Assembly (NCBI GenBank): GCA_052139735.1
Contig: JBKQWB010000038.1
Location: 37,766-101,765 of the forward strand
Direction of reading: 5' to 3'
DNA length: 64,000 nucleotides
Origin: Smithella sp.
GTDB taxonomy: Bacteria; Desulfobacterota; Syntrophia; Syntrophales; Smithellaceae
The first letter of the stretch is position 1. Every line of letters starts with the position of its first letter. This document shows positions 1,748 through 24,365 of the stretch, piece after piece. Below the pieces are notes generated by a model. It worked only from the letters and a program-made list of their open reading frames with translations. It was not told the DNA's origin and searched no databases. The position numbers and the translations under genes are program-made.

Positions 1748-1774
1748 CGTCTTATTCCAACCATGAAAGCATCA

Positions 1775-1811
1775 ACAAAAAAGAGGTTTGTCCGTAATGG
1801 ACAAACCTCTT
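1775..1811 (-). terminator. Rho-independent terminator after hndD
   Basis: A 12 bp perfect stem, agaggtttgtcc / ggacaaacctct, closes a short loop (about 5 nt) at 1782-1810. On the minus strand it is followed by a T6 run (complement of 1776-1781). Confidence 0.65.
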
Positions 1812-1843
1812 TATACATGATTTTCAGTTAACAGCAAAGCTTC

Positions 1844-3604
1844 TTATTCATCTTTTCCGTGAGGCAAATCCGTGCCTCTTTTCGTGTATTTGGTGTGCAG
1901 AAGCTTGTGCGACTTGTGTCCCAAAGGTTCCTTCAGGAAGTTGGCATACAGTTTCTTAACCGATTCATTTTCATGGGATTGACGGTTCTTCTGAACTTTT
2001 CCGTCATCTTTATAAAGAGCGGAGGAACGAAGTACTCTGATTTCGTTGTTAGTGGGGATGGGCTCGCCGCCGCCGGCGATGCAGCCGCCCGGACAGCACA
2101 TTACTTCAATGAAGGCGTAACCGCCTTTACCTTCGCGAATCAGATCCATCAGTTTGCGGGCATTTCCCAGACCATGAGCAACGGCAATCTTGACATCTCC
2201 AAGAGCGCCAACCTTGACAGTGGCTTCTTTGACGCCTTCCAGACCGCGAACAGGTGTGATATCCAGACTCGGCAGGTTTTCGCCGGTGACAACTGCGTAA
2301 ACCGTGCGCAGAGCGGCTTCCATAACGCCGCCGGTCGCGCCGAAAATGGTGGCTGCGCCGCTGTATTCACCCATCGGGGCGTCATAATCTTCATCCTGCA
2401 GATTGACAAAGTCAAGGCCGCCTTCATGAATCATACGGCCTAATTCTCTCGTTGTGAGAACATAATCAACATCTTGATAGCCGCTGCTGTTCATTTCGGG
2501 GCGCTGGGCTTCAAACTTTTTAGCGGTGCAGGGCATGATGGAAACCGAAACGATATCTTTCGGATCGACGCCCGCTGTTTCCGCGTAATAGGTTTTGGCC
2601 AGCGCGCCGAACATTTGCTGCGGCGATTTGCAGGTGGAAAGATGACCGAGCATATCGGGATAGAAATGTTCGCAGAACTTGATCCATCCGGGGCTGCACG
2701 AAGTAATCATCGGCAGTGTTCCCCCTTCTTTAACTCTTTTGAGTAATTCGTTGCCTTCTTCAATGATGGTGAGGTCGGCAGTAAAATTGGTGTCGAAAAC
2801 TTTATCAAAACCTAGACGGCGCAGCGCAGCGATCATCTTGCCTGTGACAAGGCTTCCCGGAGGCATGCCGAATTCTTCACCAAGAGCCGCGCGGATAGCC
2901 GGAGCTTCCTGCACGATGACATGTTTGGTCGGATCCTGCAGAGCTTTCCATACCAAATCAACGTCATCCTTTTCATATAAAGCGCCTACCGGGCAAACCA
3001 TGATGCACTGGCCGCAGGCGATGCAGTTGGATTCAATCAAAGGCAAATCAAAAGCAGGAACGACTTTTACTTTGCTGCCGCGATTAGCCGGTGTCAAAAC
3101 GCTGACAGTCTGAACTTCATCGCAGACGGTTACGCAGCGATGACATTCAATACATTTGCGGCTGTCCCGTACGATAGAAGGACTGGAATGGTCGATCATG
3201 CCTTCTTTCGGGAATTGTGTATAATCAAAACGAACTTCTTTAATGCCAACAAATTCGGCGACTTTCTGCAATTCGCAGCTGCCGTTTCTTACGCAGTAAT
3301 TGCACTCCTGCGGATGATTGGCCAACAGAAGTTCCACCACCATTTTTCTGGCTTTGCGTACTTTCTCCGTATTGGTGTGGACGACCATTCCCTCGGTTAC
3401 GGGAAAAACGCAGGCCGCGATCAGACTGCGCTGACCTACAACTTCCGTCATACACACACGGCAGGCGCCGGGAGTGTGATTTCTTTCCGTCCATGCACAA
3501 AGTGTGGGAATTACAATACCGGCACTGCGAGCGGCCTCCAGAACTGTGGAGCCGGCCTCTGCCGTCACTTTACGATTATCGATAGTCAAATTAACGGTTG
3601 ACAT
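1844..3604 (-). CDS. hndD: [FeFe]-hydrogenase catalytic subunit (HndD/HydA type, M3 architecture plus C-terminal small-subunit-like tail)
   Basis: 586 aa. The N-terminus has a 2Fe-2S site (CAW...GACRVC), a His-ligated cluster region (HPQECNYCVRNGSC) and two ferredoxin motifs (CIECHRCVTVC, CIACGQCIMVCP). H-cluster motifs are L2 MPCTAKKFE and L3 EVMCCPGGCIAGGGEP. L1 reads TSCSPGW, which is non-canonical (see findings). Confidence 0.92.
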   Translation of the reverse strand: MSTVNLTIDNRKVTAEAGSTVLEAARSAGIVIPTLCAWTERNHTPGACRVCMTEVVGQRSLIAACVFPVTEGMVVHTNTEKVRKARKMVVELLLANHPQECNYCVRNGSCELQKVAEFVGIKEVRFDYTQFPKEGMIDHSSPSIVRDSRKCIECHRCVTVCDEVQTVSVLTPANRGSKVKVVPAFDLPLIESNCIACGQCIMVCPVGALYEKDDVDLVWKALQDPTKHVIVQEAPAIRAALGEEFGMPPGSLVTGKMIAALRRLGFDKVFDTNFTADLTIIEEGNELLKRVKEGGTLPMITSCSPGWIKFCEHFYPDMLGHLSTCKSPQQMFGALAKTYYAETAGVDPKDIVSVSIMPCTAKKFEAQRPEMNSSGYQDVDYVLTTRELGRMIHEGGLDFVNLQDEDYDAPMGEYSGAATIFGATGGVMEAALRTVYAVVTGENLPSLDITPVRGLEGVKEATVKVGALGDVKIAVAHGLGNARKLMDLIREGKGGYAFIEVMCCPGGCIAGGGEPIPTNNEIRVLRSSALYKDDGKVQKNRQSHENESVKKLYANFLKEPLGHKSHKLLHTKYTKRGTDLPHGKDE

Positions 3605-3637
3605 GAAATATTTCTCCTTATCGTTAAAAAATATAAA

Positions 3638-6600
3638 TTAAATAGCCGCGTCGCAACGCAAACAACGACAGGCTTCTTTAATAGCATCTTCAGGTTTGAA
3701 GCCAAGTTCCACTTCTGCAAAGCTCATCTTGCGGGTGCCATGATGCATTTCCGGCATTGCCATCTGAGGTATTTCCTCCGTGTCTTCATCAATGACCAGA
3801 GGCACATCAATTTTCTCTTTCGCCGGGTTCTCGTAAGCAGGTTCGCCATTGGCTATGCGGATAGCTGCATCGATATCGTCGGCAGCCTGATGTCCGTAGC
3901 CGATAGCCGCGATGACAGTGTCAGGTCCTGTGACAGCATCGCCGCCCGCGAAATAACGGGAATTGGCTGTACGGGTTTTATATCCCTTACCGACATTGAA
4001 GCAATCCCACTTGTTGATTTCCACGCCGTTCTTTTTATCGATGAAGCTCATATCGGGAACCTGGCCGATGGCGGCAATGACCGCATCAACATTTAAAGTA
4101 AATTCTGAACCTTCTATGACAACAGGTTTCTTGCGTCCGCTGTTGTCAAAGTCGCCCAGTTTCATGCGATTGCAGGTAATGGAAGATACTTTTCCCTTTG
4201 CGCCGTCAATTTTCAACGGGGCAACCAGATAATCAATCTTGATTCCCTCGTCTTCAGCCGCTTTAATTTCCTCTTCGGCTGCCGGCATATCTTGTCTCAA
4301 ACGGCGATACAGAATGGTGACATCTGAACCGAGTCTTAATGCTACGCGAGCAGCGTCAATAGCCGAATTGCCACCGCCGATGACAGCCACTTTCTTGCCC
4401 AGGGTCTTTTCGCCTTTGAGCCATTTGTCTTCATTGTTGTTGAAGTCGCGCAGGAATTCAACGCCGCCGAAAACATTCTTCATATCTTCACCGGGCACGC
4501 CCATTTTCTGGCTCTTGTGCGCGCCTGTTGCCAAATAGATAAAGTCGAAATCTTTTTCCAGTTTGGCAAATGTAATATCCTTGCCCACGCGGGTGTTGAG
4601 GCGAATTTCCACGCCGAGAGCGCGGATATCATCAATTTCACTATCCAGAATGTTGCGAGGCAGACGATATGAGGGAATGCCCCAATAAAGCATTCCACCG
4701 GCTTTATTGAGTTCTTCAAAAACGGTTACTTTGTAACCGCGTAATGCCAGATCACGCGCGGCGGTAAGACCGGCAGGGCCTCCGCCCACAACAGCTATCT
4801 TTTCTTTGCGTGTGACAGGCACAACATCGATCTTCGGACGAGGCGCGTTATCTGTAATGAAACGCTTCAGGAACTTAATGGCAATGGGTTCATCCATGTT
4901 GCCGCGGCGGCATTTGCTCTGGCATTTGTGATCGCAGACTCTTCCGCAAACGGAGGGGAAGGGGTTGCTTTGCAGCAGTATTTTGTATGCGTCGTCAAAT
5001 CGTTCGGCCCGAATAAGCGCTATATAGGAAGGAATATCCATTTCGATCGGGCAGGTATGCTGACACGGTGATTTGAACATGGCCGAGCATACTGCTGCTA
5101 CGCATTTATGCTCGCGGATGTGCTGTTCATACTCTTTACGGAAATAACGGATGGTGCTTAAAATAGGATTTGGCGCTGTTTGTCCCAATCCGCAAAGGGC
5201 CGCATTTTTGATAATTTCGGCCATTTCTTCCAGAAGTTCAATATCGCCTTCCTTGCCTTTGCCCTGGGTGATATTGGTCAATATATCCAGCATGCGTTTC
5301 GTGCCCTCGCGGCAGGGTGTACATTTGCCGCAGGATTCATCCTGGCAGAAATCCATGAAGAATCTGGCCATATCGACGGCGCATTTGTCTTCATTCATTA
5401 CGATTAAACCGCCGGAGCCCATAATGGCGCCGAGTTCAACTACTTTTTCATAATCAACTGGAGCGTTTAAATGCTGAATGGGAATACAGCCGCCGGAGGG
5501 CCCGCCTAACTGTGCTGCTTTGAATTTCTTGCCTTTGGGAATACCGCCGCCGATATCATAAACGATGGTGCCCAGTTTTGTTCCCATGGGAACTTCCACA
5601 AGACCGACGTTGTTAACGTCACCGGTAAGCGCGAATACTTTTGTGCCTTTGCTCTTTTCCGTGCCGATGGATGCGTACCATTTTCCTCCGCGCAGAAGAA
5701 TCTGACCGATGTTAGCCAATGTTTCCACGTTATTCAGAATACTCGGTTTCTGCCACAGACCGGCAACAGCGGGGAAGGGCGGTCTTGGCCGGGGCATGCC
5801 TCTTTTCCCTTCAATGGAGGTCATCAGGGCCGTTTCTTCACCGCAGACAAAAGCGCCTGCGCCCTGGTAAATTTCCAGATCGAAATCAAAGCCCGTGCCC
5901 AGAATATCCTTACCCAGCAAACCGGCATTATGCGCTTGGTCTATGGCTACGTTTAAACGATGAATAGCCAACGGATACTCAGCGCGGCAATAAATGTAAC
6001 CTTGCTTGGAACCTATGGCTTTGGCGGCGATAACCATTCCTTCAAGAACGGCGTGTGGATCAGCTTCCAGAACGCTTCTGTCCATAAAGGCACCGGGATC
6101 TCCTTCATCAGCATTGCATAAAACGTATTTAATATCACTTTTGGACTGAGCGGCAAATTTCCATTTCAGGCCTGTAGGGAAGCCCGCTCCGCCGCGCCCT
6201 CTTAATCCTGAATCGAGGATTTCCTGAACGATTTGTTCCGGTTTCATTTCAGTCAGGGCTTTAGCCATGCCGGCATAGCCGTCACGCGCGATATATTCAT
6301 CAATTTTTTCGGGATCGATCAGACCACGATTCTTCAAAACTCTCAACTCCTGATGAGCGAAGAAGGGGATGTCCTGCATGGTCGGAATAATTTCATCTGT
6401 TGAGGGCTCATGATATAAGAGACGCTCTAAAGTTCTTCCCTTGATTAAATGTTCTTCAACCAGTTCCGGTATATCTTGCGGCTTCAAGCTGACGTAAATT
6501 ATACCTTCCGGATAAACGACCATGATCGGTCCCAGAGCGCAAAATCCGTTACATCCTGTTTCCACAACCTTTATTTCTTCAGTCAATCCTCTTTTGTCAA

Positions 6601-6694
6601 GCTCTTCCAATAAAGCTTTTTTTACTGCAGGTTGGCCGGAAGCCTGACAGCCGGTGCCTCCACAGATTAATAAATGCGAACGAAAAACTTTCAT
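3638..6694 (-). CDS. hndC: NuoF-like flavoprotein subunit of the hydrogenase (HndC/HydB) fused to a GltD/NfnB-like NADPH-dependent FAD oxidoreductase module
   Basis: 1018 aa. Domains in order:
- N-terminal thioredoxin-like 2Fe-2S domain (LLICGGTGCQASG...CNGFCALGP).
- NuoF FMN/NADH region (GLRGRGGAGFPTGLKWKF, NADEGDPGAFMDR).
- N3 cluster motif ESCGKCTPCREG.
- From about aa 530, a GltD-like part: CGRVCDHKCQSKC, the FAD fold VVGGGPAGLTAARDL, and the NADPH fold VIGGGNSAIDAARVALRLGSDVTILYRR.
- C-terminus ...EACRCLRCDAAI. Confidence 0.88.
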   Translation of the reverse strand: MKVFRSHLLICGGTGCQASGQPAVKKALLEELDKRGLTEEIKVVETGCNGFCALGPIMVVYPEGIIYVSLKPQDIPELVEEHLIKGRTLERLLYHEPSTDEIIPTMQDIPFFAHQELRVLKNRGLIDPEKIDEYIARDGYAGMAKALTEMKPEQIVQEILDSGLRGRGGAGFPTGLKWKFAAQSKSDIKYVLCNADEGDPGAFMDRSVLEADPHAVLEGMVIAAKAIGSKQGYIYCRAEYPLAIHRLNVAIDQAHNAGLLGKDILGTGFDFDLEIYQGAGAFVCGEETALMTSIEGKRGMPRPRPPFPAVAGLWQKPSILNNVETLANIGQILLRGGKWYASIGTEKSKGTKVFALTGDVNNVGLVEVPMGTKLGTIVYDIGGGIPKGKKFKAAQLGGPSGGCIPIQHLNAPVDYEKVVELGAIMGSGGLIVMNEDKCAVDMARFFMDFCQDESCGKCTPCREGTKRMLDILTNITQGKGKEGDIELLEEMAEIIKNAALCGLGQTAPNPILSTIRYFRKEYEQHIREHKCVAAVCSAMFKSPCQHTCPIEMDIPSYIALIRAERFDDAYKILLQSNPFPSVCGRVCDHKCQSKCRRGNMDEPIAIKFLKRFITDNAPRPKIDVVPVTRKEKIAVVGGGPAGLTAARDLALRGYKVTVFEELNKAGGMLYWGIPSYRLPRNILDSEIDDIRALGVEIRLNTRVGKDITFAKLEKDFDFIYLATGAHKSQKMGVPGEDMKNVFGGVEFLRDFNNNEDKWLKGEKTLGKKVAVIGGGNSAIDAARVALRLGSDVTILYRRLRQDMPAAEEEIKAAEDEGIKIDYLVAPLKIDGAKGKVSSITCNRMKLGDFDNSGRKKPVVIEGSEFTLNVDAVIAAIGQVPDMSFIDKKNGVEINKWDCFNVGKGYKTRTANSRYFAGGDAVTGPDTVIAAIGYGHQAADDIDAAIRIANGEPAYENPAKEKIDVPLVIDEDTEEIPQMAMPEMHHGTRKMSFAEVELGFKPEDAIKEACRCLRCDAAI

Positions 6695-6760
6695 TTAGCC
6701 TATATCCTCCTTAAGAAATCATCATGCCGTGCAACAATAAGCATGTTAGAGCGAAAAAAA

Positions 6761-7144
6761 TTATCTGGTTACTTCAGATCCTCTGGCCAGAACAAAAGGA
6801 GTCTGAATTTCTCCCTCCATGATGTGTCTTTTGAAAACCTGTCTCATTTTGTTGGAATTCATATATTCATATTTTATCGGTTCCTGATTCAGGACTTCAA
6901 CAGTAACAAGAGGTTCGCGGCTGCATAATCCCATGCAACCGGAAGTGGTTATGACAACATCATTTGCGCCGGCAGCTTCAATTTCCTGAAGCAATGTATC
7001 CATAACTTCTTTGGCTCCCGAAGCGATACCGCAGGTTCCCATGTGGACGGTAACTTTGACGCGACGCTCGCCATCCCGCAGGGACATTTCCTTGTGCACT
7101 TTATCCTTTATTTTTTTTAAATCATCTATTGTTAATTTCGCCAT
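6761..7144 (-). CDS. hndB: Small thioredoxin-like [2Fe-2S] ferredoxin subunit (HndB-like)
   Basis: 127 aa with HMGTCGIASGA...TSGCMGLCSREP, a four-Cys pattern typical of the 2Fe-2S thioredoxin-like fold. It lies between the NuoE-like and NuoF-like genes, as in hndABCD. Confidence 0.75.
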   Translation of the reverse strand: MAKLTIDDLKKIKDKVHKEMSLRDGERRVKVTVHMGTCGIASGAKEVMDTLLQEIEAAGANDVVITTSGCMGLCSREPLVTVEVLNQEPIKYEYMNSNKMRQVFKRHIMEGEIQTPFVLARGSEVTR

Positions 7145-7175
7145 TGGCGTTTCCTCCCGGCTTTAAATTATTTTA

Positions 7176-7673
7176 TTATGTATATTGAGCTAATATCTCT
7201 TTTACCTTGCCCGGCTTGACACGGCCGTGCACGTCTTCATTCACAACAACTACCGGCCCCAAACCGCAGGCGCCTAAACAACGAACGCTTTCCAGAGTAA
7301 ACATTCTGTCGGGAGTGGTCTCGCCTTCCTTAATGCCGAATTCCTTCTCCATGGCTTCAGTGAGTGCTTTTCCGCCGCGCACATAGCAGGCAGTTCCCAG
7401 ACAAACGCGAACAGTATGCTTGCCTCGCGGTGTCATGGTAAAAAACGAGTAAAACGTGACAACACCGTAAACCCGGCTTAAAGGCAAATTCAAGTCTTTG
7501 GCAATCTTTTTCTGCGCTGATAGGGGCAGGTATTCCAGACACACCTGCGCTTCTTCCAGTACGGGAATTAAACTTCCCGGTTTGCCTTTGTGTTTGCTGA
7601 TAATCTTGTTTAGTTTATCAACTTGTGCTGATGTAAATTCTTTTAAAAGTTCAGTATCTTCTGCCTTCATCAA
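7176..7673 (-). CDS. hndA: NuoE-like [2Fe-2S] subunit of the hydrogenase (HndA/HydC)
   Basis: 165 aa with VRVCLGTACYVRGG...VRCLGACGLGPVVVVN, the NuoE/24 kDa-type cluster motif. Confidence 0.87.
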   Translation of the reverse strand: MMKAEDTELLKEFTSAQVDKLNKIISKHKGKPGSLIPVLEEAQVCLEYLPLSAQKKIAKDLNLPLSRVYGVVTFYSFFTMTPRGKHTVRVCLGTACYVRGGKALTEAMEKEFGIKEGETTPDRMFTLESVRCLGACGLGPVVVVNEDVHGRVKPGKVKEILAQYT

Positions 7674-7701
7674 ATTCCTCCTTACGTAATCTTCGTGTTT
7701 G

Positions 7702-8250
7702 TTATGCCCGGGGTTTAATTTCGCTTAAACCTTCGTCAATGACGCCACGAATATATTTTAATATTTCAAAATGATTTATCGGTAAATCATCGATTTCTTT
7801 GCGGATTTCACGCGTGTCCACTGAGAACCGTTGGTCATTATGCCTATGTTTGTAAATAAAGTCAACAAAAGAATTTCCGGCAATAAGATTGATAATAGTT
7901 GCTGAAATATCACCCATAGGCTGCCTGTCCAGATGGTCGAGTTGAAAAGTTGCCTTAAGCCTTGTTCCCTTACCTTTTTCTGATTTCAAATCAAGATTGC
8001 CGCCGGCCATTTGAGCGGCATTGGTCAGAAGAGGAATTCCCAATCCGAATCGTCTCACTTTTTTTGTTGTGTAAAAAGGGTCAAAGGCTCTTTTGATTTC
8101 CTCTTTGGTCATTCCGCAGCCGTCGTCATTTATTTCTATGGAGAGCAAATTATTAGCCGAATCTTCATTTATATTTATTTCGACTGTTTTAGCTCCTGCA
8201 CGAACAGAGTTTTCAGCAATATCCAGAATATGTTCGGCAAGCTCCAGCAT
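7702..8250 (-). CDS. Stand-alone GHKL/histidine-kinase-like ATPase domain protein
   Basis: 182 aa. N-box EHILDIAENSVRAGA, G1 NDDGCGM, G2 RRFGLGIPLL. No DHp or sensor domain is visible. Confidence 0.7.
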   Translation of the reverse strand: MLELAEHILDIAENSVRAGAKTVEININEDSANNLLSIEINDDGCGMTKEEIKRAFDPFYTTKKVRRFGLGIPLLTNAAQMAGGNLDLKSEKGKGTRLKATFQLDHLDRQPMGDISATIINLIAGNSFVDFIYKHRHNDQRFSVDTREIRKEIDDLPINHFEILKYIRGVIDEGLSEIKPRA

Positions 8251-8252
8251 TT

Positions 8253-8990
8253 CTACTCCAATACACGACGACCGTTTTGCCCGGTGAAAGCCATTTTTAA
8301 TTCCGCCAGAGTTGGTTTTTCAAGCATAATCTTTGTCAGTGCCGTTCCAATGTCTTTTAAGTAATGGGCATCGGAGGAAGTTATAAATGAATAATTATTC
8401 AACTCCCTGTATTTAATTCGTGCCTGTTGAAGACCTGTTAAGGACGATATTTCCAACGCGTCAAAATGAATGCTTTCGTCAATAAAGCCGAGTTGGCTCA
8501 ATACACTGAAACTTTCTCTGTCTATATGAGAGGCAACTGCTAATCCGTTTTGCTCATGTACGTGGTTCAATAAATCATTTAATGGAATATCAGTGGCTCC
8601 GATTAATAATTTATCGTTTATTCCCTCGACCTCGCCATTTTCATTTACAATGGCCTGAACGCCGAAACGGTCTTCATCATTTTTTCCCGGCAGATGCTGA
8701 TAAACAATTTCCTGCAGCCTGGCTAAATCCGGCAAAGAATCGAATAGAGCTAAAAAATGCACTTCTTCACTTGTTGTTATTTCCATTCCGGGAAATATCT
8801 TTAAATTTTTTCCCCGGGCGGCATTGATGACGTAAGAAACATTTTCAGAAGAGTTGTGATCGCAAATGGCAAGAATATCGAGACCGGCGGCGATGGCTCT
8901 TTCTACCAGAGCTTTGGGATGCATATCCAATTCGGCGCAAGGTGAGAGACAAGTGTGAATGTGAAAATCACAATTAAAAACTTTAAGCAT
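8253..8990 (-). CDS. PHP-domain (polymerase/histidinol phosphatase-like) metal-dependent phosphoesterase
   Basis: 245 aa. It has the N-terminal CDFHIHTCLSPCA motif, then ILAICDHNS and SSDAHYL, which are typical PHP metal ligands. Confidence 0.75.
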   Translation of the reverse strand: MLKVFNCDFHIHTCLSPCAELDMHPKALVERAIAAGLDILAICDHNSSENVSYVINAARGKNLKIFPGMEITTSEEVHFLALFDSLPDLARLQEIVYQHLPGKNDEDRFGVQAIVNENGEVEGINDKLLIGATDIPLNDLLNHVHEQNGLAVASHIDRESFSVLSQLGFIDESIHFDALEISSLTGLQQARIKYRELNNYSFITSSDAHYLKDIGTALTKIMLEKPTLAELKMAFTGQNGRRVLE

Positions 8991-9053
8991 CGTCTTTTGG
9001 GGGAATTAAACAGACATGGCCAAAAGTCTGCGGCAGTTATAAAAACATTTCTG

Positions 9054-9398
9054 TTATTTTTCCGTTCTCAACAAGTTATAAATTCTACCTGTTAATTCGA
9101 ATGCGGACAAATTTGAAATCAGTATGGGGACATTCTCCTGAATGGCCTTTTCCAGAGTGTCTTTAGCCGGTTCGCAAGAATTAACCAGAATAACAGCCGC
9201 GTGCTCTTTCAAGGTGGCTATGGCAACGATATTTTGGTGCACCTGTCGTGTTATCCAGATATCTCCTTCGTGAGAATTTGCCATTACATCGCTTAAGAGA
9301 TCTCCCGTATAACCTCCTTTAACATTATTATTCTTAATTCTGTCTAATGCAGATACTACTTTTAAATTTAATTCTTTTGCTATGGTTGCGATGTCCAT
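9054..9398 (-). CDS. DRTGG-domain protein (short, divergent copy)
   Basis: 114 aa. Core YTGDLLSDVMAN...AAVILVNSCEP...ENVPILIS aligns with the two other DRTGG-like ORFs in this locus. Confidence 0.6.
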   Translation of the reverse strand: MDIATIAKELNLKVVSALDRIKNNNVKGGYTGDLLSDVMANSHEGDIWITRQVHQNIVAIATLKEHAAVILVNSCEPAKDTLEKAIQENVPILISNLSAFELTGRIYNLLRTEK

Positions 9399-9408
9399 TA
9401 TATATCCT

Positions 9409-9876
9409 TTATATATCCTTTGTTAATTGAGTAGCGTTAATGATCATTCTTAAAGAAGTTCCTTTGTTCACTTCCGATGAGATATCGAATTTGTCAGAGT
9501 AGAAATTGATATTGTGAAGTCCCATGCCGGCGCCGAACCCCATTTCTCTTATTTGCTGACTGGCAGTAGAATAACCTTGTTCCATTGCCTGTTCAATATT
9601 GGGTATTCCGGGCCCTTCATCAGCTGCTTCAATCTCGACATTTTCCGGGGTGACTGTAAGATTGATAAATCCTTTTCTGGCGTAAGAAACGATATTGATT
9701 TCGGCTTCATAAGACACAATGGCGGACTTTCGAACAACATCGCTCGGCAGTCCTTTTTCTTTTAGGATAGCTTTTATGCGCATAGAAACTGTCCCAGCGA
9801 CATTAAAATTACCGCCCTCAATATTAAAGCTATACTTATTAAAAGTGTTTTCAGGTTTGTTCACTACCGGTATCAA
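9409..9876 (-). CDS. Anti-sigma-factor-type Ser/Thr kinase-like ATPase (SpoIIAB/RsbW-like HATPase)
   Basis: 155 aa with YEAEINIVSYA (N-box-like), DEGPGIP (G1) and GFGAGMGLHNI (G2). It overlaps the upstream DRTGG gene by 26 nt. Confidence 0.65.
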   Translation of the reverse strand: MIPVVNKPENTFNKYSFNIEGGNFNVAGTVSMRIKAILKEKGLPSDVVRKSAIVSYEAEINIVSYARKGFINLTVTPENVEIEAADEGPGIPNIEQAMEQGYSTASQQIREMGFGAGMGLHNINFYSDKFDISSEVNKGTSLRMIINATQLTKDI

Positions 9877-10225
9877 CTTTTTCCAGACAGCCGACTATGC
9901 CTTTTGCGTAAAGACGGCCCGCCGTTTCGAATAAAATGTATTTTGTCGTTAAAATGGGAATTTGAAGACTCTTAGCCATAGATATGGTTTCTGCAGGCGG
10001 TTTTTTACCGCGAACTAAAATTATCGCGGCCATATCGAGAACATTGGCGATTCTCACAACCTGCGTATTAGTCAAGCCGGTCAACAAAAGACAGCCCGCC
10101 TTCGCAAAGGAAAGGACATCGCTCATTAAGTCTGCTCCAAAAGCGGTTGTGACTTCAATATCTAGTTTTTCATCACCAACAATAACGTCGGCATCTAATA
10201 TTTCTTTAACTTCTCTTAGTTTCAA
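9851..10225 (-). CDS. DRTGG-domain protein, paralog A
   Basis: 124 aa, TTG start behind GAGGAA. Motifs FGADLMSDVL, LLLTGLTN and AAIILVRGKKP...IPILTT. About three quarters of residues match the ORF at 10485-10862. Confidence 0.6.
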   Translation of the reverse strand: MKLREVKEILDADVIVGDEKLDIEVTTAFGADLMSDVLSFAKAGCLLLTGLTNTQVVRIANVLDMAAIILVRGKKPPAETISMAKSLQIPILTTKYILFETAGRLYAKGIVGCLEKVDTGSEQT

Positions 10226-10484
10226 TACCCATTCCTCATACAGAAAAAATCCGGCGATTTCTTTTTAAAATATAGAAAACATTTTATTTTCCACTATCAT
10301 ATATTAAACTTTATTGTCAATGAAATCATTTTGGTAACTGGATTATACATTCAGTAAATGAATCGCCGTATTGTCCGCGTTCGATGAATTTTAAATCCAA
10401 CTTACTGAAGATGTTTTAGCGGCATTAGCAAAAAATATAATTTCCCAATTAATCCTCTTTAGTTCATCAAAAGAGTTCCGATAT

Positions 10485-10862
10485 TTATTTGTTGTGAAAA
10501 CTGTCACTGTCGACTTTTTTCAGGCAACCAACAATACCTTTACTATAAAGGATACCGGCTGTTTCAAATAAAATATATCGCGTAGTTAAAATCGGAATTT
10601 GAAGTTCTTTAGCCATGTCGATAGCTTCAGTAGAGGGTTCTTTTCCTCTAACGATGATAATAGCGGCAATATGCTTGGCCGCAGCCGTTTTAATGACCTG
10701 AGCATTTGTTAAGCCGGTCAATAAAAGACTTCCCGCTTTGGCAAAAGCCATTACATCGCTCATCAAATCAGCTCCAAAAGCCGTAGAAACCTCAATATCT
10801 AATTGCCCCTTGCCGACGATTAAATCAGCATCCAATACTTCTTTAACTTCTCTTAGCTTCAA
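10485..10862 (-). CDS. DRTGG-domain protein, paralog B
   Basis: 125 aa, TTG start behind GGAG. It is colinear with paralog A over its full length (MKLREVKE[IV]LDAD...ILFETAG.LY.KGIVGCL.KVD). Confidence 0.6.
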   Translation of the reverse strand: MKLREVKEVLDADLIVGKGQLDIEVSTAFGADLMSDVMAFAKAGSLLLTGLTNAQVIKTAAAKHIAAIIIVRGKEPSTEAIDMAKELQIPILTTRYILFETAGILYSKGIVGCLKKVDSDSFHNK

Positions 10863-11099
10863 ATAAACTCCTTATAGATAAGAAACTTGACGTTTATTGT
10901 TTGGGATGTACAAAGTGTTTGATTATATTAAAAATGTCGTATTAATCAATACTTACTTAAGTATATCCTACCATAAATTAATATTCAATGTCAATGAGAT
11001 TATTATGGGAAATGAACGATGTTCAATTTGTGACCGCCAGTTTTTTTTCTTAAAAAAATTAATTGTGAGATTATAGTAAAAATACGGCTGCATTTACCC

Positions 11100-11127
11100 T
11101 TGACATGGTTTTACTGTAATGATAATG
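11100..11127 (+). promoter_or_regulatory. Sigma70-type promoter for tRNA-Pro
   Basis: TTGACA at 11100-11105, a 16 nt spacer, then ATAATG at 11122-11127, about 20 nt upstream of the tRNA. Confidence 0.5.
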
Positions 11128-11147
11128 ACCTGCACACTTTAGCATGT

Positions 11148-11224
11148 CGGGGCGTGGCGCAGTCTGGTAGCGTATCTGAATGGGGTTCAGAGGGCCGGTG
11201 GTTCAAATCCACTCGCCCCGACCA
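11148..11224 (+). tRNA. tRNA-Pro (anticodon GGG)
   Basis: Hand-folded cloverleaf, 77 nt. Acceptor cggggcg/cgccccg, anticodon stem tctga/tcaga, loop atGGGgt, T-loop ttcaaat, encoded CCA. Confidence 0.9.
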
Positions 11225-11476
11225 GTAAAATCAAGGGGTTAGCCAATAGTTTGGTTACCCCTTTATCTTTAACTACATTTTTTTCAATCTTTTAAGTCCA
11301 TAAAGAAATTATATTTTACCAGGTTAATCTATTTTCGATTAGCGTTTATGGCAGGCATAATATTCATGAAGACATTTTTCTTGCATAAAAGCGGATAATC
11401 AAATACATAAAATCCCCTAAAGCTTCAAAAAGCTTAATCTGACTGGTTTTGTTAGTAATTTCAAAAATAATCCGCG

Positions 11477-11506
11477 TTGACATTCTTATGCGTAATGAAT
11501 TATAAA
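11477..11506 (+). promoter_or_regulatory. Sigma70-type promoter for tRNA-Leu (and possibly tig)
   Basis: TTGACA at 11477-11482, a 17-18 nt spacer, then TTATAA/TATAAA at 11500-11506, about 10 nt before the tRNA. Confidence 0.55.
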
Positions 11507-11515
11507 AGTCCAGGA

Positions 11516-11602
11516 GCGAGAGTGGCGGAATTGGCAGACGCACTGGACTTAGGATCCAGCCCGCTATGCGGAATAGGGGTTCAAGTCCCCTCTCTCGCAC
11601 CA
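11516..11602 (+). tRNA. tRNA-Leu (anticodon TAG)
   Basis: 87 nt class II tRNA. Acceptor gcgagag/ctctcgc, anticodon stem ctgga/tccag, loop ctTAGga, long variable arm cccgctatgcggaat, T arm agggg-ttcaagt-cccct, encoded CCA. Confidence 0.9.
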
Positions 11603-11652
11603 GTCTTAAAGAAGAGTTTTGTAAATATTTCAATGAAAAAGGAGATATTATC

Positions 11653-12975
11653 GTGAGTCAGGTTCAGATCAAGATGGAAGAATTGAGTCCAGTTAAGAAA
11701 AAATTATCATTTGAAATACCCTGGAGTGAGGTTAAAAATGAACTGGATGCTGTATATCATGAGGTTAATAAGAAAGCTAAAATTAAAGGTTTTCGTCCGG
11801 GCAAAATTCCACGCAAGATTTTAGAAACTTATTATAAGGATCATGCCCAGGAAGAAGCGACAACCAATATTGTGAACAAATATTACTGGCAAGCGTTGGA
11901 AGACAAGGGAATTGTTGCTGTTTCGCGACCCGAAATAAGTCAGGAAGGAATAAAAGAAAATACAGATTTTTCTTTTTCTGCTTCGTTCGAAATGGAACCG
12001 GAGTTTGAACCTAAAGGTTATAAAGGAATCGAATTAGAAAAAGAAGAACTTAAAGTAACCGATAATGATGTTAAAAAAAGAATTAACGAAATAAGAGAAA
12101 TGTTTGCGACGATGGAGGAGGTCAAAGATGATCGACCCGTTGTCAATGCTGATTTTGTTGTGATTGATTTTGCAGGGAGTTTAAACGGAGAATTATACAA
12201 AGAATTAAAAACGGAAGACTATTTACTGGAAATCGGATCACAGAGATTTGTTCCGGGTTTTGAGGAACAATTGATTGGTATGAAAAACGGGGAAATAAAG
12301 GAAATTAAAGTAACTTTCCCTGCTGACTATCACGAAAATAAATTTGCCGGCAAAGAGATAATTTTCAATGTAACATTGAAAGGCATAAAGGAGAAGAAAT
12401 TACCTGAAACGGATGATAACTTTATCAAAAATTTCGACAGGTACAATTCTTTGGAAGATTTAAAAAACGATGTGCGTAAAACTTTGGAAGAAAAATTTCA
12501 CCGCCAGGCGGAAATTAATCTGCAAAACAGAATTACAGAAATATTGATAAAAGAAAATGATTTTGAAGTTCCCTCTTCGCTTGTTGAAAGGCAGATTTAT
12601 TATATGATGACTGATACTCAAAAAAGAATGGTTTCTGCCGGTATGGATGAAAAAAATGCTCTGGAATTAAGCTTTAAGATGCATGATAAATTCAAAGATG
12701 ACGCGGCTAAAATCGTCAAATCTTTTTTACTTTTAAAAAAAATAGCCCAAAAAGAGTCATTTGTCGTTGAAGAAAACGATGTAGATAAATATATTCAGGA
12801 ATTAGCTGTTCAGAATGGCCAGGATTACGAATTATTAAAGAAAATGTACGATAGTGAAGAACGTAAAGACAGTCTTAAAATGGAGTTGATTCAAAAAAAG
12901 ACATTTGACTTTATAGAGCACAATGCCAATATTAAGACCGTAGAAAACAATGGTATGAATGCGGAGGTTAAATAG
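11653..12975 (+). CDS. tig: Trigger factor
   Basis: I chose the GTG start at 11653 behind AAAGGAGA. The ORF-track start at 11566 lies inside tRNA-Leu. The product has an N-terminal ribosome-binding region ([13 protein letters not shown]) and an FKBP PPIase region ([18 protein letters not shown]). Confidence 0.9.
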
Positions 12976-13589
12976 TGACTTTGATTCCCATGGTGGTTGA
13001 GCAAGACGGGCGAGGCGAACGGGCGTACGATATTTATTCACGTTTGTTGAAAGATCGCATAGTTTTTCTGGGTACAGCGATTGATGATAATGTGGCCAAT
13101 TTAATTGTTGCTCAAATGCTGTATCTGGAAGCTGACAACCCGGATAAGGAGATCTTTTTTTATTTAAATTCTCCCGGAGGGAGTGTGAGTGCCGGGATGG
13201 CCATTTATGATACAATGCAGTACATTAAATCACCGATTTCGACTGTTTGCATGGGACAATCAGCCAGCATGGCCGCGTTACTTTTAGCAGCAGGAGAAAA
13301 GAAAAAAAGATTTGCCCTGCCTCACTCGAGAATTTTAATCCATCAACCGTTGGGAGGGTTTCAGGGACAGGCGACGGACATTGACATTCAGGCAAGAGAA
13401 ATATTAAGATTAAAGGATGAGTTAAACAAAATACTGGCTGATTTAACAGGACAGCCGCTTCCCAAGATTATTAATGACACGGAACGCGATTATTATATGA
13501 CTGGTGAACAAGCTAAAGAATATGGTTTGATCGATGAAATCATAGTTCGCAAGCCGACTTCTTCAGGTAACACAAAAAAGGAGATTTAA
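12975..13589 (+). CDS. clpP: ATP-dependent Clp protease proteolytic subunit
   Basis: 204 aa with [19 protein letters not shown] and the catalytic Ser context [14 protein letters not shown], plus RILIHQP. Confidence 0.95.
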
Positions 13590-14852
13590 GTGATAAAAAA
13601 AGGCAAAAATAATAGAATGGATGATGGAATGCTTTTTTGTTCTTTTTGCGGAAAAATGCAAAGTGAAGTGCGAAAACTGGTTGCCGGTCCGACAGCCTAT
13701 ATTTGCGATGAATGCATTGAACTTTGCCGGTATATTGTTGAGGAAGAAGAAGATAAACTTGTAGAAAAAGATTCCCCGAAGGGTTTGCCCTATCCGAAAG
13801 AAATTAAAAAATTTTTAGACCAGTATGTAATTGGTCAGGAAAAAACAAAGAAAATATTGTCGGTTGCCGTTTATAATCATTATAAAAGATTATTTTCTCA
13901 TATTGAGGCCGATGGGATAGAAATTCAAAAAAGCAATGTGCTTTTAATCGGTCCCACAGGTTCGGGTAAAACATTGCTGGCTAAAACTCTGGCAAAATTT
14001 CTTAATGTTCCTTTCACAATCGCTGATGCTACAACTTTGACTGAAGCCGGATATGTTGGGGAAGATGTAGAAAATATTATTTTAAGCTTGCTGCAAAATG
14101 CCGATTATGATGTTGCCAGAGCGTCAAAAGGAATTGTTTACATTGATGAGATAGACAAGATTGCGAAAAAATCGGGAAATCCTTCCATAACCAGAGATGT
14201 TTCCGGTGAAGGAGTCCAACAGGCCTTGTTGAAGATTATGGAAGGAACAATGGCCAATATACCCCCCAAAGGCGGCCGTAAACATCCTCAACAAGAGTTT
14301 ATTCAGGTAGATACAACAAATATATTATTTATTTGCGGCGGCGCTTTTAATGATCTGGAAAACATCATTTCCAAACGATTGGGAGTTAATGCGATGGGTT
14401 TCGGCGCCGAAATAAAAAGTAAGAAAGAAAAAAGGGTTGGTGAATTGCTGGCCGAAGTACGATCGGAAGATTTATTGAAAGTCGGATTAATACCTGAATT
14501 TATCGGACGATTGCCGGTTATTGCCACGCTCGATGAGTTGGATGAATCGGCATTAATCAAAATTCTGGTTGAGCCGAAAGACGCTATTATAAAACAATAT
14601 AAAAAATTGTTTGCTTTGGAAAATGTATCCCTGAAATTTACAGACGGGGCCCTGAGAGCTGTAGCCGGTTTATCAACGGAAAGAAAATCCGGCGCCCGCG
14701 GTTTGCGATCAATTCTGGAAAACACAATGTTAGAAGTTATGTATGATATTCCTTCACAAAATAATATTAAGGAATGTGTTATTAGTGAAGAAGTCGTATT
14801 AAAAAAAGAAAAACCAATTTTGATTTACGAAACTAAATCTGAATCTGCTTAA
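13590..14852 (+). CDS. clpX: ATP-dependent Clp protease ATP-binding subunit ClpX
   Basis: 420 aa. Zinc-binding CSFCGK...CDEC, Walker A GPTGSGKT, Walker [12 protein letters not shown] start behind AAGGAG. Confidence 0.95.
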
Positions 14853-14872
14853 AGGAATAAACAAGGAAAAAT

Positions 14873-17278
14873 ATGTTTAATGAAAATAAAGACAATGATC
14901 AGGATAAAACAATAACGATTCCTCTCCTGCCGCTGAGAGATGTTGTTATGTTTCCACATATGATTGTGCCTCTGTTTGTCGGGCGCGAAAAATCTATTGC
15001 CGCGCTGGAATCAGCGATGAAATACGAAAAAAGTATTTTCATGGTTGCCCAGAAGAATGCCAAAGATGATGACCCCAAACAGGAAGATATTTATCATATC
15101 GGCACAATCGGCATAATCATTCAACTTTTGCGTTTGCCTGATGGGACAGTCAAGGTGCTTGTCGAAGGGAAAACTCGCGGCGTCATAAAAGAATATTTAC
15201 CCAACAATGATTTTTTCCTGGTTAAAGTAAATGAGATTGAGGATATTGATGATAAAAATGACGTGAAAAAGCAAGCTCTGATACGAAGCATTAAAGAATC
15301 TTTTGAGCTTTATCTGAAACTCAGTAAAAAAATCCATGTTGAAATGCTGGGGACAATTGCCGCTATTGAAGATGGCTCAAAGCTGGCCGATGTCGTTATT
15401 ACTCACCTTAATGTGAAACTTGAAGATAAGCAGAAAATTATAGAGGTGTTTGACATCGGCGAACGACTGGAAGCAATTTATTCTCTGATGCTTTCAGAAA
15501 TCGAAATCCTGCAGGTTGAAGAAAAGATCAAGAGACGCGTTAAAAAGCAGATGGAAAAGACGCAAAAAGATTATTATCTCAACGAACAAATGCGGGCCAT
15601 TCAGAAGGAAATGGGAGACAAAGATGATTTCCGCAACGAGATAAACGATTTAGAAAAACGTTTGAAGCAAAAGAAAATGTCGGAAGAGGCAGTGAAAAAG
15701 GTCCGGCAGGAAATTAAAAAATTACAAATGATGACCCCCATGTCCGCAGAAGCTACGGTAGTCAGAAATTATATTGACTGGATACTGGACATGCCGTGGT
15801 CGGAAAAAACAGAAAATAAAAACACACTGAAGGAATCCGAGGCGATTCTGGATGAAGATCATTTTGGATTGAAAAATGTAAAAGAACGCATTATCGAGTA
15901 CCTTGCCGTACAATCTCTGGTTAAGAAAAATAAAGGTTCGATTTTGTGTCTTGTTGGTCCTCCGGGCGTAGGAAAGACTTCTATCGCTAAATCGGTTGCC
16001 AGGGCTACAAATAGGAAATTTGTTCGTATCTCTCTGGGAGGTGTTCATGATGAAGCGGAAATTCGAGGCCATCGTAGAACTTATATCGGAGCTATGCCCG
16101 GGAAGATTATTCAGTTGTTAAAAAAAGCCGGTTCCAACAATCCTGTTTTTTGTCTGGATGAAGTAGATAAGGTCAGCTCTGATTTTAGAGGAGATCCTTC
16201 ATCCGCTCTGCTGGAAGTTCTGGATCCGGAACAGAACTTTGCGTTTAATGATAATTATCTTGATGTTGATTATGATTTGTCGGAAATCATGTTTATTACG
16301 ACGGCAAATATTTTGCAGACAATACCGGCTCCGTTGCAGGACAGAATGGAAGTAATCAGGATTGCCGGATACACGGAACCGGAGAAACTGCAAATAGCGA
16401 AAAAATTTCTAATCACCAAGCAGGTAGAAGCTAATGGTCTGAAAATTGAAAATATCGAATTCACTAATGGAGCGTTGCTGAAAATTATCCGTCAATACAC
16501 ACGGGAAGCCGGCGTGCGCAATCTTGATCGGGAGATTGCCTCCATTTGCCGGAAAGTGGCCAAAGAAATAGTGAGCAATGATAATAAAAAAAGAGTGTTT
16601 ATCAGTTCAACATCCATATCCAAGTATTTGGGCGTGCCCAAATATCATCATGGCGAAATGGAAGAAAAAAGCAAGATTGGCCTGACAGTCGGATTGGCCT
16701 GGACAGAAGTCGGCGGAGAACTTTTATCAATTGAAGCCTCAATTATGGAAGGTACCGGCAAGATGATAATGACAGGTAAATTAGGCGATGTGATGCAGGA
16801 ATCGGTTCAGGCTGCACTGAGTTATATTCGCGCCCGCGCCGAACAATTCGGGCTGGCAAAGAATTTTTATAAAAAAATTGATATTCATGTGCATGTTCCG
16901 GAAGGAGCAATTCCCAAGGATGGCCCCTCTGCAGGCATTGCCATGACTACTTCCATAGCGTCAGTTCTCATGCAGAAAAAAGTGCGTGCGGATATCGCTA
17001 TGACCGGTGAAATTACATTAAGAGGTAGAATTTTGCCGATTGGCGGACTCAAGGAAAAAATCCTTGCGGCTCACAGGGGTAATATTAAAACAGTGATCAT
17101 TCCGAAAGATAATGAAAGGGACCTGGCGGAAGTTCCCAAAAATGTGCAGAATGCGCTGAAAATTATTTTTGTCGAGCATATTGATGAAGTTATGAAAATT
17201 GCATTTGTTCAGGATGAAGAGGATATTAGGCCACCAAGTCCGGCAGATGTTCCCATAAGTTCCCAATCAGTGAATTAA
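14873..17278 (+). CDS. lon: Lon protease
   Basis: 801 aa. Walker [10 protein letters not shown], Walker B FCLDEVDK, and the protease active-site context [14 protein letters not shown]. Confidence 0.95.
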
Positions 17279-17355
17279 AAGGTTTTAAGAGCTTTTATGA
17301 CTTGACAAGCAATATCAATGTTGCTAGAAGCCTCACAGCGTTTTTGGTGTATTAC

Positions 17356-17431
17356 GGGCGGGTAGCTCAGCTGGGAGAGCGCCACGCTTACACCGTGGAT
17401 GTCACAGGTTCGATCCCTGTTCCGCCTACCA
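17356..17431 (+). tRNA. tRNA-Val (anticodon TAC)
   Basis: 76 nt. D arm gctc-agctggga-gagc, anticodon stem ccacg/cgtgg, loop ctTACac, T arm acagg-ttcgatc-cctgt, encoded CCA. A possible TTGACA lies at 17302-17307 upstream. Confidence 0.9.
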
Positions 17432-17476
17432 ATTATGCTGAATTGAAAAAGTGACATAAAATTAAAATGATTTTTT

Positions 17477-17553
17477 GGGGTCGTAGTTAAGTTGGTTATA
17501 ACGCCGGCCTGTCACGCCGGAGGGCGTGGGTTCAAGTCCCATCGGCCCCGCCA
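17477..17553 (+). tRNA. tRNA-Asp (anticodon GTC)
   Basis: 77 nt. Acceptor ggggtcg/cggcccc, anticodon stem ccggc/gccgg, loop ctGTCac, T arm gtggg-ttcaagt-cccat, encoded CCA. Confidence 0.9.
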
Positions 17554-17563
17554 GAAAATCTAA

Positions 17564-17595
17564 GGGAGCCATTAATAATGGCTCCCTTTTTATTT
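17564..17595 (+). terminator. Rho-independent terminator after the tRNA pair
   Basis: Stem gggagccatt / aatggctccc with a 3 nt loop, followed by TTTTTATTTT. Confidence 0.8.
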
Positions 17596-17687
17596 TAGGC
17601 TTTTGAGCCTTGCTTTTTGTCAGGCTCTGATATAAAAATAATCCTATAGATTATTATAAATTTTAAAAGGAAAACAAAGATCATACT

Positions 17688-18560: not shown

Positions 18561-18577
18561 TTCGGGGAGAAGTATTT

Positions 18578-22090: not shown

Positions 22091-22260
22091 TCAATAGATT
22101 AATTTACAGGATGATTGTATCTGATAATTGATAATCATTTAGTTTTGGGAAAAAATAAAAACTATGCTATATGATAATGTGCGTGTATTTTATTAATGCG
22201 ACTATGAAATTTGAACATGGAAATTTGAACATGTTTTGAAAAAACAAAGGAGTTGTTTCA

Positions 22261-24192: not shown

Positions 24193-24242
24193 ATATTATG
24201 GAGAATAGAGTCTATTTTGGAAAACAGGTTAATTAATTTTTC

Positions 24243-24365
24243 TTGACAATTTAGTTGTGTTTGTGTTAAAAAGGGCTAAATTCGCTTGGATCTGAAAGGA
24301 CTGAGACGAAAGGAAAACTTAGAGAACATTTTAAAACCTTTCGTCTTCCGACGGAAGGTTTTTTT
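24243..24365 (+). promoter_or_regulatory. Promoter plus attenuator-like leader upstream of panCD
   Basis: TTGACA at 24243-24248 with an extended -10 (TGtTAAAAA around 24264-24272). An intrinsic terminator, cctttcgtc-ttcc-gacggaagg plus T7 (24337-24365), ends 8 nt before the panC ATG. The upstream segment agacgaaagg (24304-24313) is exactly complementary to the 5' terminator arm, giving an alternative pairing. Confidence 0.55.

Follow-up and report, generated by a model that had tools for sequence, protein, structure and literature searches.

A widespread cassette of DRTGG, GHKL and PHP genes beside NuoEF-type flavoprotein genes, and its sensor-free version in Smithella

A 64,000-nucleotide stretch of a Smithella sp. 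contig (JBKQWB010000038.1; this whole stretch is referred to below as the window) carries, directly upstream of the genes of a [FeFe] hydrogenase, six genes encoding three DRTGG-domain proteins, a SpoIIAB-like kinase, a PHP phosphoesterase and a stand-alone GHKL ATPase. On balance we lean towards reading these six genes as the sensor-free, lineage-specific version of a widespread signalling cassette dedicated to the NuoE/NuoF/HydD (HydC/HydB/HydD) arm of electron-bifurcating-type enzymes. Gene content, intact catalytic motifs, synteny, gene fusions and the ties to NuoEF genes and to genes for group D putative sensory hydrogenases (HydS) were observed directly, and from these we infer a phosphorylation step, a ligand, a target and an output. 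A preliminary description of this DNA had suggested a partner-switching or nucleotide-dependent switch that might control or assemble the hydrogenase; a switch is still the best reading of the module, but assembly has turned out to be the weaker half of that idea, and the likely target is the NADH-binding flavoprotein arm and not the hydrogenase as such.

One genome per GTDB species was scanned with the PHP signature LH[IV]H[TS]xLSPC, and 594 of the 600 listed matches were confirmed as relatives, giving at least 594 genomes with such a protein. Neighbourhoods were worked out for the best 80 of these at least 594 loci (denoted here by L numbers), which were annotated with hidden Markov models (HMMs) made from the window proteins and checked with Pfam; the feature counts given below are over 82 loci, the window included, and a subset of 46 loci has at least 4 kb upstream and at least 6 kb downstream. 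The 80 loci come from Desulfobacterota, Acidobacteriota (including Aminicenantes), Nitrospirota, Bacteroidota/Ignavibacteria, Cloacimonadota, Clostridia, Spirochaetota, Fidelibacterota, Zixibacteria and others, and in them the order DRTGG, SpoIIAB-like kinase, DRTGG, PHP, GHKL is kept nearly everywhere, with median distances of -4 to 26 nt at all junctions. Among the 46 well-flanked loci the GHKL gene was present in 46, a DRTGG gene in 45, the SpoIIAB-like kinase gene in 43, NuoF in 41 and HydC in 40. Since the ordered set recurs in 80 loci and many phyla with such tight spacing, the arrangement is far beyond chance. That no function had been established for such genes, as stated at the outset, was borne out: full-text searches of the open-access literature for DRTGG or PHP together with hydrogenase turned up no description of the cassette.

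The element that stays constant beside the cassette is the flavoprotein arm, with NuoF at 62 loci, HydC at 64 and HydD at 62, while the catalytic subunit varies: a true group A H-domain HydA was found at 6 loci (all Syntrophales), a molybdopterin subunit (selenocysteine formate dehydrogenase (FDH) or NuoG-like) at 14, a NiFe large subunit at 10, HdrB/C-like genes at 14 and NuoD at 7. The conserved partner is thus the NuoE/NuoF/HydD arm and not the hydrogenase. Similar small genes had been said to accompany HydABC operons in Thermotogae and Firmicutes; the cassette does recur across phyla beside related redox operons, including those of metagenome-assembled genomes (MAGs) of Clostridia, with group A HydA confined to the few loci just given. 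An initial assignment of HydABC to every locus was rejected after the use of domain-limited HMMs, motifs and Pfam, as several of the apparent HydA proteins were Fer2_4/HdrA-like or molybdopterin proteins; the NiFe loci also have MvhD and a HdrA-like Fer2_4 protein. About 20 Syntrophales loci have, after the module, the same 1018-amino-acid (aa) fusion of NuoF to a GltD-like half that is found in the window, followed by HydA, by a selenocysteine FDH or by no catalytic subunit, several Syntrophales loci stopping after the fusion; the fusion may point to a family of Stn- or Nfn-like enzymes linked to NADH/NADPH.

The cassette can also stand inside the structural operon, between hydC and hydD (L034, L053, L071 and L075) or between hydB and the catalytic, last subunit (L038, L048, L052 and L076). 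L043 (6905-16945) and L047 have a trio of short DRTGG, PHP and GHKL genes within a complex-I-like operon, where nuoD lies on one side of the trio and a run of nuoE, hydD, nuoF and a NuoG-like gene on the other. After the PHP and GHKL genes come HydC and then HydD in 37 loci, with HydD first in 12, and in some Desulfobacterales (L057, L066, L067, L074 and L081) HydD lies beside the GHKL gene with HydC and NuoF on the other strand. HydD is a candidate for the contact between module and enzyme. Its invariant residues are H34, C38, C70, C74, Y92 and H107; only three of its cysteines are conserved (C38, C70 and C74), and H34 falls, by eye, at the position of the first cysteine of the homologous HydB N-terminal domain, so that HydD may hold a His/Cys3-ligated [2Fe-2S] site, as judged from these residues.

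At 28 loci a group D hydrogenase-like protein of ~420-460 aa is encoded between the SpoIIAB-like kinase and short DRTGG genes. It has Fer4 and Fe_hyd_lg_C domains and the PF04060 Fe-S motif; Cx2Cx4Cx16C was present in 22 of the 22 sequences checked, the L1 motif is SxxCPxVVR, without the proton-relay cysteine (C299), and L2 is TPC in 19 of the 22 (M353 replaced by Thr). Cx2Cx4Cx16C, the lack of C299 and the change of M353 to Thr are M2e/group D traits of TamHydS of Thermoanaerobacter mathranii (Land et al. 2020, PMC8163306), the gene for which is flanked by one for a histidine kinase-like ATPase, with a bifurcating HydABC downstream. The M2e architecture comprises two N-terminal [4Fe-4S] motifs and the H-domain, without PAS. 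The cassette resembles the TamHydS neighbourhood in that the M2e-architecture protein lies inside it at these 28 loci, upstream of NuoEF-type enzymes, and the accessory genes of the window are in the same order as in the group D HydS-associated cluster (DRTGG, kinase, [HydS], DRTGG, PHP, GHKL). It differs in that the window has no HydS, in that the DRTGG, PHP and second GHKL genes are absent from the published descriptions (PMC8163306, PMC13104023) and in that the cassette also occurs with FDH, NiFe/Hdr or nuo genes, or without any hydrogenase. The interaction partners of group D HydS were described in 2026 as still to be identified, and their identification as critical (PMC13104023).

The window, like Syntrophales loci in general, has the sensor-free version of the cassette: as first described, there is no HydS in its 64 kb, nor was a further H-domain protein or a second copy of any module gene found there. 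As 28 other loci enclose a group D HydS, this absence is a lineage-specific variant and is no evidence against a relation to H2 sensing. At eight loci (L024, L028, L031, L033, L037, L042, L049 and L056; for example L042:5152-18714) group D HydS was seen in operons with HdrC/B/A-like proteins, NuoE/F, a Fer2_4 HdrA-like protein, MvhD and a NiFe hydrogenase. These NiFe/Hdr operons have no group A [FeFe] hydrogenase, and therefore the supposed group D sensor either is not restricted to HydABC or may serve a different purpose at these loci. In group C HydS systems (R. albus HydS and T. saccharolyticum hfsABCD) a PAS-hydrogenase is accompanied by a Ser/Thr kinase and by a phosphatase of the PP2C type, and deletions in them give regulatory phenotypes (PMC5707799). 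The cassette shares the logic of these group C HydS/HfsB systems, in which the genes for a sensor-like hydrogenase, its kinase and its phosphatase stand with those of fermentative hydrogenases, but unlike them it has PHP in place of PP2C, no PAS domain, DRTGG proteins and an extra GHKL ATPase, and in the window it is without a sensor.

The SpoIIAB-like kinase keeps invariant ATP-binding motifs in 62 orthologues (N box E57, E59 and N61; G1 D86, G88 and G90; G2 G113-L120). Its single PDB family match was the anti-sigma F factor 1til (E 1e-5), the alignment with which confirms these motifs, and it scored 51 bits against the spIIAB model TIGR01925, under the cut-off of 135, which makes it a relative and not an orthologue. 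In several lineages the kinase carries an N-terminal pair of CBS domains. The cassette is like the SpoIIAA/SpoIIAB/SpoIIE and RsbV/RsbW/RsbU systems in having a kinase with intact ATP motifs, a small overlapping gene before it and a phosphoesterase gene downstream, but its small proteins are DRTGG and not STAS proteins and its phosphoesterase is of the PHP and not the PP2C type. No STAS antagonist, PP2C (SpoIIE/RsbU) phosphatase or sigma factor was detected by Pfam among the genes of the cassette or noticed in their vicinity.

The stand-alone GHKL ATPase has a histidine-kinase-type ATP-binding domain, in which the N, G1, F and G2 boxes are invariant, and a small C-terminal domain, with an invariant H106-x-D108-x-x-P111-x-G113 motif located after the ATP-binding domain. 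No DHp/HisKA domain was matched by Pfam in this 182-aa protein, the N terminus of which is the ATP-binding domain itself. Its AlphaFold2 model (predicted local distance difference test score (pLDDT) 91, predicted template modelling score (pTM) 0.88) was matched by Foldseek over its whole length to MutL-N and Topo VI-B (template modelling (TM) scores 0.48-0.60), no membership of these families being found at the sequence level, and the ATP-binding domain alone was matched to histidine kinases. Natural fusions of PHP and GHKL proteins exist (P0139, P0141, P0162 and P0188), which argues that the two act together.

In the PHP phosphoesterase H10, H12, S16, C18, D44, H45, N46, E70, H155, D207 and H209 are invariant over 86 sequences, including the conserved metal ligands of the PHP motifs (H10, H12, H45, E70, H155, D207 and H209), as is the family signature H-x-H-T-x-L-S-P-C. 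The segment of C18, after the HxH motif, probably corresponds to that in which other PHP families carry an Asp or His metal ligand, and the invariance of C18 may reflect a redox or metal property peculiar to this subfamily. The best PDB profile match was Endonuclease Q (EndoQ, 5zb8; E 3e-19; Foldseek E 1e-14), which covers the whole catalytic core, followed by TM0559, a pAp-phosphatase-like protein (3',5'-bisphosphate nucleotidase) and RNase AM. EndoQ (COG1379; PDB 5zb8 and 7k30) is thus the closest relative of the PHP core in both sequence profile and structure, but is a protein of ~400 aa, while the PHP protein of the cassette ends at 245 aa, without the Zn ribbon or C-terminal DNA-binding part, and has its own signature and another gene context. 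The family comprises 438 clusters at 50% identity with E<=1e-30, and the closest relatives of the window protein, at up to 98% identity, are in Smithella and in Smithellaceae MAGs, which places the window in a syntrophic lineage of the Desulfobacterota.

The two longer DRTGG proteins of the window, A and B, are 73% identical, with pN (non-synonymous divergence) 0.16 and pS (synonymous divergence) 0.75, the latter saturated; with pS saturated and pN low, the duplication is therefore old, and purifying selection acts on each copy. Homology of the short DRTGG protein to this long family is clear (hhalign 99.8%, E 2e-30) despite its sub-cut-off Pfam score (Table 1), and its place among the earlier domain calls is confirmed by this profile comparison only, while the others are confirmed by Pfam and NCBIfam scores. 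Two subtypes can be told apart by position in the cassette: the first-position proteins conserve D32, L33, S35, D36, T49, G50 and G103, and the short, second-position proteins have an invariant signature of Y30, D33, L34, S36, V38, W48, Q52, H54 and N56. A DRTGG gene lies upstream of the SpoIIAB-like gene at 62 junctions (median distance -4 nt) and directly before the PHP gene at 73 junctions, always of the second-position type at the latter.

Among DRTGG domains of known structure the closest is that of the regulatory insert of a CBS-pyrophosphatase (PDB 3l2b and 3l31). In CBS-pyrophosphatases the DRTGG domains take part in the dimer contacts, and a response to diadenosine polyphosphates is confined to the forms that have this domain. 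As in their CBS-DRTGG-CBS insert, DRTGG goes with CBS domains in the CBS-kinase fusions of the cassette, but there it is an internal domain of an enzyme, while in the cassette it forms stand-alone proteins of 114-125 aa in two conserved subtypes. The statement that the module has no obvious sensor domain was therefore too strong, since DRTGG is itself a regulatory domain that tracks the diadenosine polyphosphate response in those enzymes; Pfam found no DNA-binding domain in the six module proteins, in agreement with what had been said of them.

The first position of the cassette is exchangeable. In L001 a receiver domain takes the place of the DRTGG gene, in Nitrospirota the position is held by a HAMP-HisKA histidine kinase, with a receiver after the GHKL gene, and cNMP-binding proteins are present in L066. 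The Nitrospirota copies lie between a pair of histidine kinase and sigma-54 regulator genes and a receiver gene and have no same-strand NuoF: in L065, L072 and L073 there is no NuoF within 10 kb, and in L040 and L077 NuoF, HydC and NuoD are divergent, upstream. Exchangeable inputs together with an optional HydS are typical of signalling systems.

From these features a mechanism can be proposed. The two GHKL proteins and the PHP phosphoesterase would form a kinase/phosphoesterase pair or an ATP-driven switch, which would set the state of the small DRTGG proteins, whether phosphorylated, nucleotide-bound or partner-bound. The DRTGG proteins would act as dimerising adaptors, taking the place of the STAS antagonists of the RsbV/RsbW or SpoIIAA/SpoIIAB systems. 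The input would be metabolic, adenine or diadenosine nucleotides or NAD(H) being read by way of DRTGG or, in other lineages, of CBS domains, with H2 as an added input where HydS is present. The output would be control of the flavoprotein arm, most likely post-translational and through HydD/HydC, and in some lineages it might pass through the adjacent two-component/sigma-54 regulators. In a Smithella-like syntroph the NAD(P)H-linked HydABC-GltD hydrogenase would in this way be tuned to redox and energy status.

Several points weigh against a kinase-driven switch of this kind. Over its whole length the GHKL fold is as close to the MutL/Topo VI-B clamps as to kinases, and in the AlphaFold2 model of one PHP-GHKL fusion (pLDDT 92, pTM 0.70) the packing of the domains is not settled. 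The PHP protein is closest to nucleic-acid and nucleotide phosphodiesterases and not to known protein phosphatases, and no output domain was identified in the cassette. The invariant serine of the DLxSDV segment in the DRTGG proteins was considered as specific evidence of a phosphorylation site and rejected, since it sits in what is presumably a general family motif, the GDRxD of the Pfam DRTGG consensus, which we take to cover this segment. We know of no report of such proteins in purified HydABC complexes, and a promoter-like site within the GHKL gene (7865-7837) could give hndA-D their own transcript, uncoupled from the module.

Some of these points fit a nucleotide second-messenger device instead, in which PHP would hydrolyse a phosphodiester ligand (a diadenosine polyphosphate, pAp or an (oligo)nucleotide), DRTGG and CBS domains would bind that ligand and the GHKL clamps would read the state of DRTGG. 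The nearest PHP relatives being phosphodiesterases and nucleotidases (EndoQ, RNase AM, 3',5'-bisphosphate nucleotidase and TM0559), the restriction of the diadenosine polyphosphate response to CBS-pyrophosphatases with DRTGG and its dimer contacts, the CBS pairs joined to the kinase and the match of the small GHKL protein to MutL and Topo VI-B clamps would all suit such a device. We nevertheless think it unlikely, as the SpoIIAB-like protein keeps all the motifs of a family whose characterised members phosphorylate a partner protein, no ligand was identified and no messenger synthase is encoded in the cassette; the idea also overlaps with the signalling switch and does not exclude it. The resemblance of the kinase to the anti-sigma F factor could alternatively mean control of transcription, with the SpoIIAB-like protein a true anti-sigma factor or a modulator of a nearby two-component/sigma-54 regulator, the DRTGG proteins its antagonists, and expression rather than activity being set. 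Pairs of histidine kinase and sigma-54 activator, or receivers, do flank the cassette in L009, L038, L041, L044, L050, L065, L072 and L077, but in the window and in most Syntrophales loci neither a regulator nor a sigma factor is encoded in the vicinity, the promoters are of a plain sigma-70-like type without a Rex-type operator, and insertion between structural genes is unusual for transcription regulators, all of which makes this quite improbable.

The position of the genes inside structural operons, at times between hydC and hydD, would also suit assembly or maturation factors, the GHKL proteins acting as chaperone-like ATPases (their fold family includes Hsp90-type chaperones) and PHP processing a flavin or other nucleotide cofactor for the NuoEF/HydD arm, and it is the flavin/FeS arm that serves as partner, irrespective of the catalytic subunit. 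Many NuoEF enzymes, however, encoded in hnd, nuo and hox operons, have no cassette, hence there is no general requirement for it. The second Hyd-like clusters of L006 and L009 stand apart from the module, the exchangeable parts are of sensor type (CBS, receiver, cNMP-binding, HAMP histidine kinase and HydS), the Nitrospirota copies have two-component genes as same-strand neighbours with NuoF on the opposite strand (L040 and L077) or with none within 10 kb, and the SpoIIAB-like kinase belongs to a regulatory family, so that an assembly role is rather improbable. A signalling switch is favoured over an assembly factor because of the PHP-GHKL fusions, the variable first position and the copies that have two-component systems, and not NuoEF genes, beside them. 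It is very unlikely indeed that the genes are unrelated hitch-hikers, a DNA-repair or phage-defence pair of EndoQ-like nuclease and MutL-like ATPase merely adjoining the hyd genes. Such a pair is brought to mind by the likeness of the PHP core to EndoQ and of the GHKL fold to MutL-N and by weak matches of PHP to Ppl and TrlF, which are defence proteins, but the 245-aa PHP protein lacks the Zn ribbon and DNA-binding domains of EndoQ, PADLOC defence models gave weak generic domain matches with no support for a defence system, and the linkage to NuoEF/HydD is kept across more than 10 phyla, including positions within operons.

In the window itself all six open reading frames placed by the preliminary description at 10862-7702 on the minus strand are present (Table 1). 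The gaps of 2-63 bp or overlaps that it gave hold from DRTGG-A through to hndA (a 26-nt overlap of DRTGG-A and the kinase gene, then 10 nt to the short DRTGG gene, 63 nt to PHP, 2 nt to GHKL and 28 nt to hndA), but the gap between the B and A paralogs is 259 bp. The module does adjoin the hnd genes on the same strand, with no terminator indicated before hydA, but the gene that had been called hndC is the NuoF-GltD fusion. With its NuoF-like and NuoE-like subunits and a group A HydA the enzyme has the features of the HydABC/Hnd type, with an extra GltD-like half on HydB.

Table 1. Coordinates of the module, the hydrogenase genes and the transcription signals in the 64-kb window
Feature	Position	Strand	Basis or remark
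Promoter-like site P_B (TTGACA, 18 nt, TAGGAT, upstream TG)	10965..10994	-	Consensus scan, 10/12 matches; before DRTGG-B
DRTGG-B (paralog B), 125 aa, position-1 type	10485..10862	-	Pfam DRTGG 47.3 bits vs cut-off 25.2
Promoter-like site P_A (TTGACA, 16 nt, GATAGT)	10293..10320	-	Duplicate of P_B; in the B-A spacer
DRTGG-A (paralog A), 124 aa, position-1 type	9851..10225	-	Pfam DRTGG 42.1 bits vs cut-off 25.2; overlaps kinase gene
SpoIIAB/RsbW-like GHKL protein kinase, 155 aa	9409..9876	-	HATPase_c_2 38.5 bits vs cut-off 27.4
Short DRTGG protein, 114 aa, position-2 type	9054..9398	-	Pfam DRTGG 22.2 bits, under cut-off 25.2
PHP phosphoesterase, 245 aa	8253..8990	-	PHP 36.1 bits vs cut-off 26.4; also PHP_C
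Stand-alone GHKL ATPase, 182 aa	7702..8250	-	HATPase_c 63.7 bits vs cut-off 26.4; HATPase_c_3 45.6 bits
Promoter-like site inside GHKL gene (TTGACT, 17 nt, CATAAT)	7837..7865	-	10/12 matches
HndA/HydC, NuoE-like [2Fe-2S] subunit	7176..7673	-	2Fe-2S_thioredx E 4e-52
HndB/HydD, small thioredoxin-like protein	6761..7144	-	Weak 2Fe-2S_thioredx match
HydB (NuoF) fused to GltD/NfnB-like NAD(P)H flavoprotein, 1018 aa	3638..6694	-	Complex1_51K, NADH_4Fe-4S, Fer4_20, Pyr_redox_2
HydA, [FeFe] hydrogenase, NADH-dependent group A type	1844..3604	-	NF040763 FeFe_hydrog_A6 903 bits vs cut-off 765
Intrinsic-terminator-like hairpin, 14 pairs and T run	1780..1812	-	Directly after hydA; closes operon

A TTGACA-N17-TATGATAG element precedes both DRTGG paralogs in the window and is also kept upstream of the first module gene in the Smithellaceae loci L001-L007. 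P_B and P_A are plain sigma-70-like sites, and the number of matches to a Rex-type operator was not above chance, with none at the promoters. Of the terminator-like sites in positions 1-12000, the hairpin at 1812-1780 has much the longest stem; the weaker minus-strand candidates, of 5-6 pairs, lie at 7266-7254, within hndA, and at 3661-3645, the 3' end of the NuoF-GltD gene. The tight spacing from DRTGG-A to hydA, the upstream promoters and the single strong terminator-like hairpin suggest that the module and hydC-A may be on one transcript.

HydA of the window has the L2 and L3 motifs of the H-cluster. Its L1 motif (2690-2710 on the minus strand, residues ~299-305) is TSCSPGW, in place of the textbook TSCCPxW, and is conserved in Syntrophales HydA; this was considered as an anomaly and rejected, as the solved A. 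woodii HydA1 (7q4v) has the identical motif, which is thus ordinary for the clade. After hydA, beyond the terminator, lies an aspartate ammonia-lyase/fumarase-like gene (Lyase_1; 365-1747, minus strand). In L001 (17429-20741) the two genes after the same Lyase_1 gene encode, in this order, a HydF domain and a Radical_SAM domain, the second gene being cut off by the end of the locus, and for this reason a hydrogenase maturation cluster may lie just past the left edge of the window.

On the other side, genes for tRNA-Pro(GGG) (11148-11224, plus strand) and tRNA-Leu(TAG) (11516-11602, plus strand) are divergent from the cassette, just upstream of its promoter, and are followed by tig, clpP, clpX and lon. 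The G+C content is 0.44-0.51 in the hyd structural genes, ~0.40 in the cassette and 0.34-0.39 in the greater part of the adjacent housekeeping region (tig, clpP, clpX and lon), with an exception of 0.41 at 16-18 kb (the regions compared being 1-8000 and 8000-26000 of the window). The sign of the GC skew switches near 11-12 kb, at the strand divergence.

Next to nothing is known, as far as we are aware, of the way in which electron-bifurcating hydrogenases and related NADH-linked complexes are turned on and off. It is possible, if doubtful, that the cassette is the first dedicated regulator of flavin-based electron-bifurcating enzymes, an ATP-driven DRTGG partner switch with PHP as its reset enzyme, acting post-translationally on the NuoE/NuoF/HydD arm, with HydS as a plug-in H2 input. 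If this is true, the cassette proteins would be the long-sought signalling partners of group D HydS, for which five conserved candidate partner families can now be named that follow NuoEF/HydD across hydrogenase, FDH, NiFe/Hdr and complex-I-type operons. In syntrophs, whose thermodynamics depend centrally on how the NADH-dependent release of H2 or formate is controlled, the sensor-free version would then gate NAD(P)H-dependent H2 or formate production by nucleotide or redox status.

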